NCBI RefSeq assembly: GCF_006345805.1
Contig: NW_021830296.1
Coordinates: forward strand, 1-5,018
Length of the DNA: 5,018 nucleotides
Reading direction: 5' to 3'
DNA from: Octopus sinensis
Taxonomy: Eukaryota
Shown: in pieces, positions 468-3,790 of the stretch
Numbering within the stretch: the stretch's first letter is position 1
Layout of the letters: each line of letters begins with the position of its first letter
Made by a program: the position numbers and the translations under genes
The notes under the pieces: generated by a model
Told to the model about the DNA's origin: nothing
Seen by the model: only the letters and a program-made list of their open reading frames with translations
The model's database searches: none

Positions 468-530
468 TGATAAAAATGGTGAGACAACAAAAGAAAGAAG
501 AACCTTGATACTATGTAAATAGAGGAATTC

Positions 531-688
531 ATCTGTAAATGTAATATGTGACAATTATTCGGTAGCCATGATAAAATTCTGATGGCCAGAAAACTGAAGA
601 GATGGCGGCGTGGATTTCCACCTCGGCATCCGAAACTCGGAGTTTTATCATGGCTACCGAATAATTGTCACATATTACATTTACAGAT
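531..688. repeat. Perfect 46-bp inverted repeat (531-576 / 643-688) with a 66-nt spacer
   Basis: ATCTGTAAATGTAATATGTGACAATTATTCGGTAGCCATGATAAAA at 531-576 is the exact reverse complement of 643-688. It extends to 52 bp (531-582 / 637-688) with 2 mismatches. Confidence 0.97.
583..656 (+). ncRNA. Type I hammerhead ribozyme motif (minimal, probably dimer-dependent; this copy partly degenerate)
   Basis: Core CUGAAGA at 594-600 and GAAA at 632-635. Stem II: GATGGCGGCGTGGA / TCCACCTCGGCATC (601-630; 2 mismatches, 1 GU, extra C631). Short near-palindromic stem III: ACTCGGAGT (635-643). NUH triplet GUU at 642-644. Stem I: TGGCCAGAAAA (583-593) pairs with TTATCATGGCTA (645-656) with one mismatch and one bulge. 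Confidence 0.72.
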
Positions 689-2454: not shown

Positions 2455-3316
2455 ACAATGGAAGGGACTACACAATCAATTCCACGTAGCTGCAACAGAA
2501 GTTGCTGGGAAAGTAGGTGAGATTGGCTGATAAAAGAAACACCAATAAAAGAGATCGAGAGCACTTTACTAGTATCACAGGACCAAGCTTTGGTCAGGAA
2601 CTGGAGGACCAACGTTAAGAATACTTAATGTCTCCGCTGTACCGTATCTGCAATAGAGCGTATGAAACCATTGCCCACATCATGAACGAATGCCCTACAC
2701 TTGCCCCAAACCATTACAAGTTGTGGCGACATGACCAGGTAGCGAAAGTGCTACGTTGGAAGCTGTGCGTAAAGGGGACGGGGTCTTGATTGACGCAAGA
2801 CGTGGTATGAGAACTAACCGCAGAGTGGAAGTGTCGGAGACTAGCAAAATCCTCTGGGATTTCCCAATCCAAACGGAACAGGGCCTAGAGCATAAAAGAC
2901 CGGACCTAGTGGTGGTGGACAAGATGCACCACATATGCTATATAGTTGACGTTGCATGCCAATTTGACGCACGAATAGTCAAGAAGGAAGGCGAAAACAT
3001 AGATAAATACAACCCTGTTAGTTTGGAAATAGCCCTGCTATGGAAAATGGAGAAGACGGAGATAGTGCCTATTATTGTTCGGTCCTTGGGAACAGTATCA
3101 GAAGGCATGGAGGTGAGTATAACGAAAATTGGAATAGAGTGCCCAGTAGAAATGTTACAAAAGTTTTGCCTCATTGGTACAGTCAGAGTAATCAGGAAAT
3201 GTATTAGTTTAAAAGAACGAATAGCATGATACTACACGCTGCGAGTAGTAAGCCCCGTTACGCATGCATGACTCAAGGAGCTTCAACAAAACATGTGATG
3301 AAGAGAAAATAATAAT
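2455..3316 (+). mobile_element. 5'-truncated R4/Dong-like (R2-group, RLE-type) non-LTR retrotransposon including 3' UTR
   Basis: Post-RT C-terminal motifs occur in the expected order, followed by a stop at 3227-3229, a ~80-nt 3' UTR and an (AAT)3 end at 3308-3316. The 5' end is lost at the triplet array. Confidence 0.85.
2459..3229 (+). pseudogene. Disrupted retrotransposon ORF C-terminus: CCHC zinc knuckle and restriction-like PD-(D/E)xK endonuclease
   Basis: Read across frames: WKGLHNQF (2459); *DWLIKETPIKEIESTLLVSQDQAL (2518); YRICNRAYETIAHIMNECPTLAPNHYKLWRHDQVAKVLRWKLC (2640; first Cys->Tyr, RHD at 2727-2735); WYEN*P (2803); KILWDFPIQT..RPDLVVVDK..IVDVA..KE.ENIDKY..VPIIVRSLG..LQKFCLIGT. 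At least 4 frameshifts plus in-frame stops. Confidence 0.9.
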
Positions 3317-3392: not shown

Positions 3393-3790
3393 GGCGCAGG
3401 AGTGGCTGTGTGGTAAGTAGCTTGCTAACCAACCACATGGTTTCGGGTTCAGTCCCACTGCGTGGCATCTTGGGCAAGTGTCTTCTGCTATGGCCCCGGG
3501 CCGACCAATGCCTTGTGAGTGGAATTGGTAGACAGAAACTGAAAGAAGCCTGTCGTATATATGTATATATTTATGTATGTGTGTGTGTTTGTGTGTCTGT
3601 GTTTGTCCCCCTAGCATTACTTGACAACCGATGCTGGTGTGTTTACGTCCCCGTCACTTAGCGGTTCGGCAAAAGAGACCGATAGAATAAGTACTGGGCT
3701 TACAAAGAATAAGTCCCGGGGTCGATTTGCTCGACTAAAGGCGGTGCTCCAGCATGGCCGCAGTCAAATGACTGAAACAAGTAAAGAGAG
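3393..3790 (+). mobile_element. tRNA-derived SINE (octopus-type), copy 2, apparently full length
   Basis: Begins GGCGCAGGAG, with Pol III boxes A and B, a central body, an internal (TA)/(TG) tract at ~3555-3600, 3' hairpins GTCGA-tttgc-TCGAC (3721-3735) and CAGTCA-aa-TGACTG (3761-3774), and a GA-rich tail. Near-identical to copy 1. Confidence 0.93.
3403..3456 (+). promoter_or_regulatory. Internal RNA polymerase III type 2 promoter (box A and box B) of the SINE
   Basis: Box A-like TGGCTGTGTGG at 3403-3413 and box B-like GGTTCAGTCCC at 3446-3456, with tRNA-like spacing. Confidence 0.8.

Follow-up and report, generated by a model that had tools for sequence, protein, structure and literature searches.

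Judged by its sequence, the inverted repeat at 468-688 of the analysed window (the whole stretch of 5,018 nucleotides of Octopus sinensis DNA, a complete 5-kb contig) represents the ribozyme-bearing end (pLTR) of a Penelope-like retroelement (PLE) of the Hydra clade, inserted into (TA)n as a short, now decayed piece made of two partial copies that stand head-to-head. In itself the locus is an unremarkable dead stub. From the copies of its family we consider it likely that the two head-to-head copies arise because both cut strands of the target act as primers for the reverse transcription of a single element RNA, with two fixed starts about 65 nt apart; this mechanism is read entirely from genomic footprints. 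The family data bear on the open question of how PLEs make inverted ends and tails: they yield a pairing rule that is exact, trace both arms to a single parent and in many cases to a single stop point, exclude simple fold-back, and give sharp predictions for the existing in vitro PLE assay.

Structure of the inverted repeat

Positions 531-582 and 637-688 are complementary over 52 nt at 96%, and the pairing is exact over 46 bp (531-576 with 643-688), both as the initial annotation had described. It had also seen about 60 nt of non-microsatellite sequence to the left of the arm, running into (TA)n; these nucleotides (468-530, adjoining (TA)n at 273-467) are the inverted tail of the element, with an outer end common to most family copies, and together with the 531-576 arm they make up the long arm of this locus. 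The features are as follows, element positions (+ or -) being numbered from the predicted cut site 644/645.

273-467, no strand: (TA)n microsatellite (TRF), left part of the target site
468-530, minus strand: element tail, antisense, +45 to +109 from the predicted cut; its outer end coincides with the fixed long 3' end of the family
531-576, minus strand: left arm, antisense copy of +44 to -2; 46-bp exact match to 643-688
577-582, plus strand: head-to-head junction; the sense strand begins at -68, with 5-6-nt microhomology with the reverse complement of 637-642
583-593, plus strand: stem I, 5' strand, with two substitutions (588, 591) in this copy, one disrupting the pair with 647
594-600, plus strand: core CUGAAGA
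601-630, plus strand: stem II, identical to the family majority
631-634, plus strand: unpaired C (631), then GAA (632-634)
635-643, plus strand: palindromic stem III, 4 bp around one base
within 635-644, plus strand: predicted cleavage triplet GUU, with the cut predicted at 644/645
643-688, plus strand: right arm, comprising the 3' strand of stem I (645-656) up to the family's short 3' end, without the tail
689-722, no strand: right flank, a short TA remnant and (GT)n

The junction had been placed exactly at 582/583, at the edge of stem I. Positions 577-582 instead agree with the family's sense strand from -68, apart from one CpG change at 580, and thus the junction is 576/577 or lies within the 5-6-nt microhomology at 577-582. 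Stem II had been taken as mutated and the perfect arms as a sign of recent formation, and neither reading holds. The sense part (577-688) departs from the family majority only at 580, 588 and 591, upstream of or in stem I, so that stem II is unmutated and stem I is damaged in this copy; and the tail carries 7 substitutions and a 2-nt deletion relative to the family, meaning that this copy is not young. A perfect 46-mer arm has a chance of about 4.5%, at a locus chosen because its arm is perfect. As RNA, the inverted repeat folds into a hairpin of -96.4 kcal/mol (z -18.8), with 0 of 200 shuffles as good. Contigs from four DNA-type sequencing runs contain the family and the unique right flank, and none of them bridges this junction; among the sequencing runs listed with a match, none is of RNA.

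The hammerhead-like motif

A hammerhead-like type I motif spans 583-656, with stem I formed by 583-593 and 645-656 and a single base left unpaired next to the first pair of stem II. It was annotated by eye because Rfam gave no hammerhead match at E<=5 for the whole window or at E<=10 for 570-700. The motif combines CUGANGA and GAAA cores, G10.1-C11.1 and a short, palindromic stem III, as type I hammerheads of PLEs do. In the folding model 634-644 forms a self-duplex of -11.5 kcal/mol, and the intramolecular stem III has a probability of at most 0.03. Hammerheads of pLTRs with a palindromic stem III have already been described, with poor cleavage in vitro, in the available text of PMC4209133.

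The family and its parent element

A search of the 2.72-Gb genome with 468-700 gave 40 scored matches of the whole unit at 83-92%, from 1550 candidates, and the 29-nt core 594-622 has 405 exact genomic matches. The family copies have fixed outer ends adjoining (TA)n, a variable inner junction, and the tail on either arm. Upstream of the window-type motif, which is 92-94% identical at loci L131, L132 and L175, about 1.1 kb of low-complexity UTR leads to a truncated frame for an RT thumb and an endonuclease. A protein search then led to a sister subfamily that is very young (its copies are about 0.5% from their own majority), has 1382 exact motif matches and includes a 717-aa open frame (L152/L156/L158). 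At L158 the order is pLTR with hammerhead, tail, 5' UTR, 717-aa ORF and pLTR, in (TA)n. In the sister-subfamily tandem copies L157/L158 the sequence runs beyond the tail end into the 5' UTR and ORF, and partial tandems with direct pLTRs occur at L158, L157, L183 and L213. The link to an RT plus GIY-YIG ORF that the initial annotation had envisaged is therefore found (L131, L132 and L175, and the sister L158).

The RT and endonuclease domains were assigned by motifs and by-eye homology to Hydra proteins; searches of Pfam, NCBIfam and PDB with the ORFs gave no significant match, and among 120 listed of the 825 protein homologues two are labelled 'hypothetical protein' and the rest are without names. 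The frame at L152:382-2532 lacks CCHH and contains RWK, DKT, a CxCx5C linker, and both CxxC and CxH around the catalytic E and N; linker, CxxC and CxH are seen too in the frames of the window's subfamily. The same set (RWK, DKT, CxCx5C, no CCHH, CxxC, CxH) defines the Hydra clade in the available sections of PMC8557442, and is found there, with a unit of <3 kb and a (TA)n target, in Hydra-1_Obim (Craig et al. 2021). The sister-subfamily unit of about 2.6 kb falls within the <3 kb of the Hydra clade, and the window's own subfamily, with its longer UTR, may exceed 3 kb at full length. TA-rich DNA adjoins 81 of 82 ends of young inverted copies. The pLTR is contiguous with a single ORF for RT plus, at its C terminus, a GIY-YIG-type endonuclease, and an inverted 5'-truncated copy occurs with a tail at one end, both as in EN+ PLEs. 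By these motifs the family is an EN+ Penelope-like element of the Hydra clade.

Several further observations were made on the family loci. The 3' UTR, from ORF to hammerhead, measures about 1.1 kb in the window's subfamily (L132:6440-7340), about 0.7 kb at L161:1740-2490 and about 0.2 kb in the young subfamily (L156:4950-5130). In the latter, CCGAAGA replaces CUGAAGA in 99% of copies and U stands for C before GAAA (e.g. L158:5290-5350, minus strand); such variants in the young, most abundant subfamily may indicate that ribozyme cleavage is dispensable for spread. A second, unrelated RT and GIY-YIG-like frame with a CxxC linker lies at L132:763-2511, 3 kb upstream of the Hydra copy, and we take it to be Neptune- or Naiad-like. 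The compound locus L042-L044 has three arms with common private variants, joined across microsatellite.

One long and one short 3' end per insertion

In the young subfamily nearly all 3' ends lie at +31 or +107. The short ends fall sharply at +31 in this sister subfamily and at about +25 to +45 in that of the window. An ORF-selected sample of 56 loci held 41 complete inverted insertions, each of them long/short (41/41), and a motif census of 70 loci held 43 distinct ones, again without exception (43/43); one insertion being common to both sets, the combined count is 83/83 distinct insertions. Of the 65 unbiased loci that belong to the window's subfamily, 32 are inverted: 28 are long/short, 2 interrupted-long/short, 2 short/short (L050 and L128, in which both arms are tail-less) and 0 long/long. 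Close opposite-strand pairs are head-to-head in 25 of 25 cases, by a hand count among the first 100 motif matches listed. For these counts L161 (two insertions) and L184, L242 and L260 (one end missing) were set aside from the pairing, L178 was omitted from the ORF-selected end analysis, a stray fragment at L197 was ignored, overlapping or duplicated loci were counted once, and L002-L030, picked for their likeness to the window, were excluded from the pairing rule.

The published statement that the tail is often at one end is sharpened by the family data to an exact pairing rule. A search of mostly open-access literature found neither this rule nor twin priming described for PLEs.

Shared parent alleles, 5' ends and joins

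The two arms of a young insertion differ from each other by 0.33%, and insertions differ among themselves by 1.1%. At the 24 commonest polymorphic sites, leaving aside T/A tracts and one CpG site, 70 comparisons show the same allele in both arms and 0 a different one. When all alleles present in at least 4 loci are compared, 104 agree (33.6 expected if the arms were independent) and 43 differ (276 expected), the discordances being mostly in T/A tracts and CpG, for which reason arms of mixed parentage were rejected. Both arms of an insertion derive from the same parent copy.

The 5' ends are also coupled in part. On contig C1, to which the hotspot statistics were confined because L284 and L285 had been picked out of order as short pairs, 24 of the 78 arm 5' ends of 39 insertions fall in -48 to -76, around the 5' strand of stem I, with a hazard about 10x that of the flanks. 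Both arms end in this zone, picked after inspection of the data, in 11 insertions, one arm in 2 and neither in 26 (Fisher p 8e-8). Among the long insertions of this contig (n=18), both ends lie within 35 nt of each other in 7, where 1.3 are expected (p 9e-5). Of 65 core-bearing copies in the window's subfamily, 50 have their end in -51 to -100; among 64 inverted ends there, a single one is within 3 nt of the predicted cut. The clustering of junctions that the initial annotation had proposed to look for is seen at stem I and not at the cleavage site. As a small, post hoc observation, 4 of the 78 young arm ends (L216, L222, L228 and L268) lie at +1 to +6, immediately past the predicted cut, where the following 48 nt contain 4 in all; the ends at +1 to +6 could mark cleaved templates.

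Young joins without inserted bases show microhomology of at least 2 nt in 23 of 34 cases (18% by chance), and inserted bases are found instead of microhomology at 29 of 65 old junctions. It is the short arm rather than the tailed one that extends further 5' in 21 of 41 ORF-selected, 13 of 39 census and 15 of 30 window-subfamily insertions. The window belongs with these, the short arm reaching -68 and the tailed arm -2.

Proposed mechanism

In the mechanism that we favour, the GIY-YIG-type endonuclease of the element would cut both strands of (TA)n, and each 3'-OH would prime a cDNA, one at the tail end and the other at the short end, probably via a protein dimer. Both cDNAs would stop at or near the same template position, and their ends would be joined by microhomology or a few added bases and then filled in. 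Both arms are read as first-strand cDNA, each from its own target end. For the short copies, the common stop is slightly better than evenly placed to be the RNA 5' end from a start site in the pLTR, and a halt at the first helix of the hammerhead comes close to it in probability. If the protein requires sequence downstream of the tail, the 5' pLTR of the transcript would be a good template, and run-off from it to the RNA 5' end would result in short double stubs like 468-688.

In vitro work on a Poseidon PLE agrees with several of these steps: in the available text of PMC11167929 both strands are cut and extended, synthesis starts at two internal sites bounding the tail and requires sequence downstream of the start sites, a dimer is predicted, and ribozyme cleavage is not needed. 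Other points count against two-ended priming. The Poseidon start sites are alike on top and bottom strand, and the available part of that paper does not report a pairing of sites (PMC11167929). Of 18 long insertions, 11 have 5' ends that lie far apart, and a single shared RNA end leaves this unexplained; the trailing polymerase would have to displace the first cDNA; and two RNAs from a single source active at the time would share alleles too.

The most direct rival keeps the two priming ends and replaces the single RNA by two RNAs, or by two units within one tandem RNA, that an asymmetric complex keeps together and that might pair through the palindromic stem III as a hammerhead dimer. The self-duplex of stem III (-11.5 kcal/mol), the tandem units of the family, the uncoupled 5' ends in 11 of 18 long insertions and the proposal, in the available text of PMC4209133, that PLE hammerheads act as dimers all speak for it. 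Yet arms of mixed haplotype occur in 0 of 70 informative comparisons, despite several haplotypes, and both arms end within 35 nt in 7 of 18 long insertions; we judge it unlikely. The initial annotation had read 468-688 as a footprint of PLE-type inverted pLTR formation by fold-back priming or template switching; the footprint was sustained, and simple fold-back was not. A single cDNA (or an antisense RNA, as in PMC3846280) that folds back and copies itself, one arm being later trimmed by the endonuclease to the short end, would account for the shared alleles and the near-symmetric junctions; self-priming is the proposal published in the available text of PMC3846280, and that of PMC8557442 ascribes the tail to endonuclease resolution. 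But a fold-back cDNA re-copies only its own content, so the loop would have to lie on the tailed arm; since the short arm is further 5' in many insertions, by the counts given above and in this window, simple fold-back is excluded and survives only with later trimming. Against it stand also the loops of 1-2 kb closed by matches of 1-4 nt, which are common, and the tail ends, which are RT start sites in vitro in the available text of PMC11167929. Fold-back with trimming is, in our judgement, quite improbable.

We give very little credence to the hairpin being a selected regulatory device, caging the ribozyme or feeding Dicer or ADAR. The claim that the hairpin would switch the ribozyme off stands as a folding prediction: in the model the probability of stem I is 0.000 once the left arm is included, and enforcing the hammerhead-like fold costs about 35 kcal/mol with the left arm against about 9 without it, both figures being approximate since the enforced outer stem II register is suboptimal. 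The monomer without the left arm is nevertheless still predicted to lack stem III and two core-proximal pairs of stem I; stem I is damaged in this copy, and junction and arm length vary in nearly all copies. The arms decay at the family background rate (3.7% divergence per arm in inverted against 4.1% in non-inverted copies), and homogenisation of the arms, as had been suggested, is contradicted by an arm-arm difference of 6.5% in the window's subfamily, with 6 of 50 pairs identical over +1 to +31, about the level predicted by chance. Nothing points to selection, homogenisation or recent origin, and the hairpin, which in a read-through RNA is predicted to shut off the ribozyme, is a by-product. 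We consider an assembly artefact, or a DNA element of MITE type bounded by terminal inverted repeats, just as improbable. The inverted repeats do sit in (TA)n, the window comprises a 5-kb contig in full, and no sequencing-run contig bridges the junction; however, the ends are asymmetric, lengths run from about 150 bp to >4 kb, the element body continues into the RT ORF, and the same layout with other junctions is present on the large contigs C1-C28. As a description of the family the plain MITE, which had been named as the alternative, is refuted, since the copies show neither a fixed unit nor terminal inverted repeats that are symmetric; a target-site duplication, if any, would blend into the (TA)n around it.

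Two-ended priming on one RNA may be carried one step further. PLEs might integrate by obligate asymmetric twin priming, in which a dimer would provide one RT per cut strand and per fixed site of a single RNA, a generalisation in which our confidence falls a little short of even. If it is true, every inverted insertion is one tailed plus one tail-less arm from one molecule, and the many short stubs are run-offs to an RNA 5' end that lies in the 5' pLTR, a little upstream of the hammerhead. The young sister family with its 717-aa open frames is a ready test system.

Comparison with known systems

In L1 twin priming the position of the second priming site varies and each of the two cDNAs covers its own part of the RNA; here, unlike in L1, both sites are fixed and the cDNAs overlap, which leads to a palindrome. 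The likeness lies in two target ends that prime on one RNA and in joining by microhomology, as far as the available text of PMC2837659 describes them. Hydra-1_Obim, among the closest known elements in the available sections of PMC8557442, shares with the family a hammerhead with CUGAAGAG, a palindromic stem III of 4 bp that encloses one base, and a U at its cleavage site. The Hydra-1_Obim protein is visibly homologous to the family ORF along the parts compared; Hydra-1_Obim is nonetheless another family, with distinct protein, stem II and UTRs when compared by eye, unaligned.

Among the features known for EN+ PLEs are an inverted 5'-truncated copy beside the pLTR, a tail of 30-40 bp often at one end only, and microsatellite targets (available text of PMC8557442 and PMC3846280). 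The inverted pLTRs published there resemble ours in the head-to-head copy, the one-end tail, the microsatellite target and microhomology at the 5' join. The differences are a tail of 63-76 nt here against 30-40 in these sources, and a long/short pairing that is exceptionless in 83 young insertions against 'optional' or 'often' in the same texts; the family data moreover argue against the self-priming proposed in the available part of PMC3846280. PAc, the Anolis Poseidon element (Frangieh et al. 2024, PMC11167929), is similar in its two internal starts bounding the tail, in the cutting and extension of both strands and in an AT-rich target. Its ribozyme cleavage is dispensable, its clade differs from Hydra, and the available sections of that paper do not treat inverted insertions or the pairing of sites. 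Animal non-LTR retrozymes have a type I hammerhead related to those of PLE pLTRs (available text of bioRxiv 10.64898/2026.07.22.740005); unlike those tandem non-coding monomers, the window's unit is the truncated end of a coding element.

Other features of the window

The elements scatter hundreds of long inverted repeats across the genome, a potential source of dsRNA. Elsewhere in the window, 1157-1548 and 3396-3785 are two inverted copies of a dispersed repeat of about 390 bp, 91-98% complementary in three blocks, which also flanks many of the family loci analysed and is presumably SINE-like. A decayed coding fragment at about 2455-3230, with a 164-aa open stretch at 2735-3229, gave no Pfam or NCBIfam match, and we take its motifs to be those of the restriction-like endonucleases of non-LTR retrotransposons. 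Positions 2086-2454 are a long imperfect (GAT/GAC)n microsatellite (TRF).
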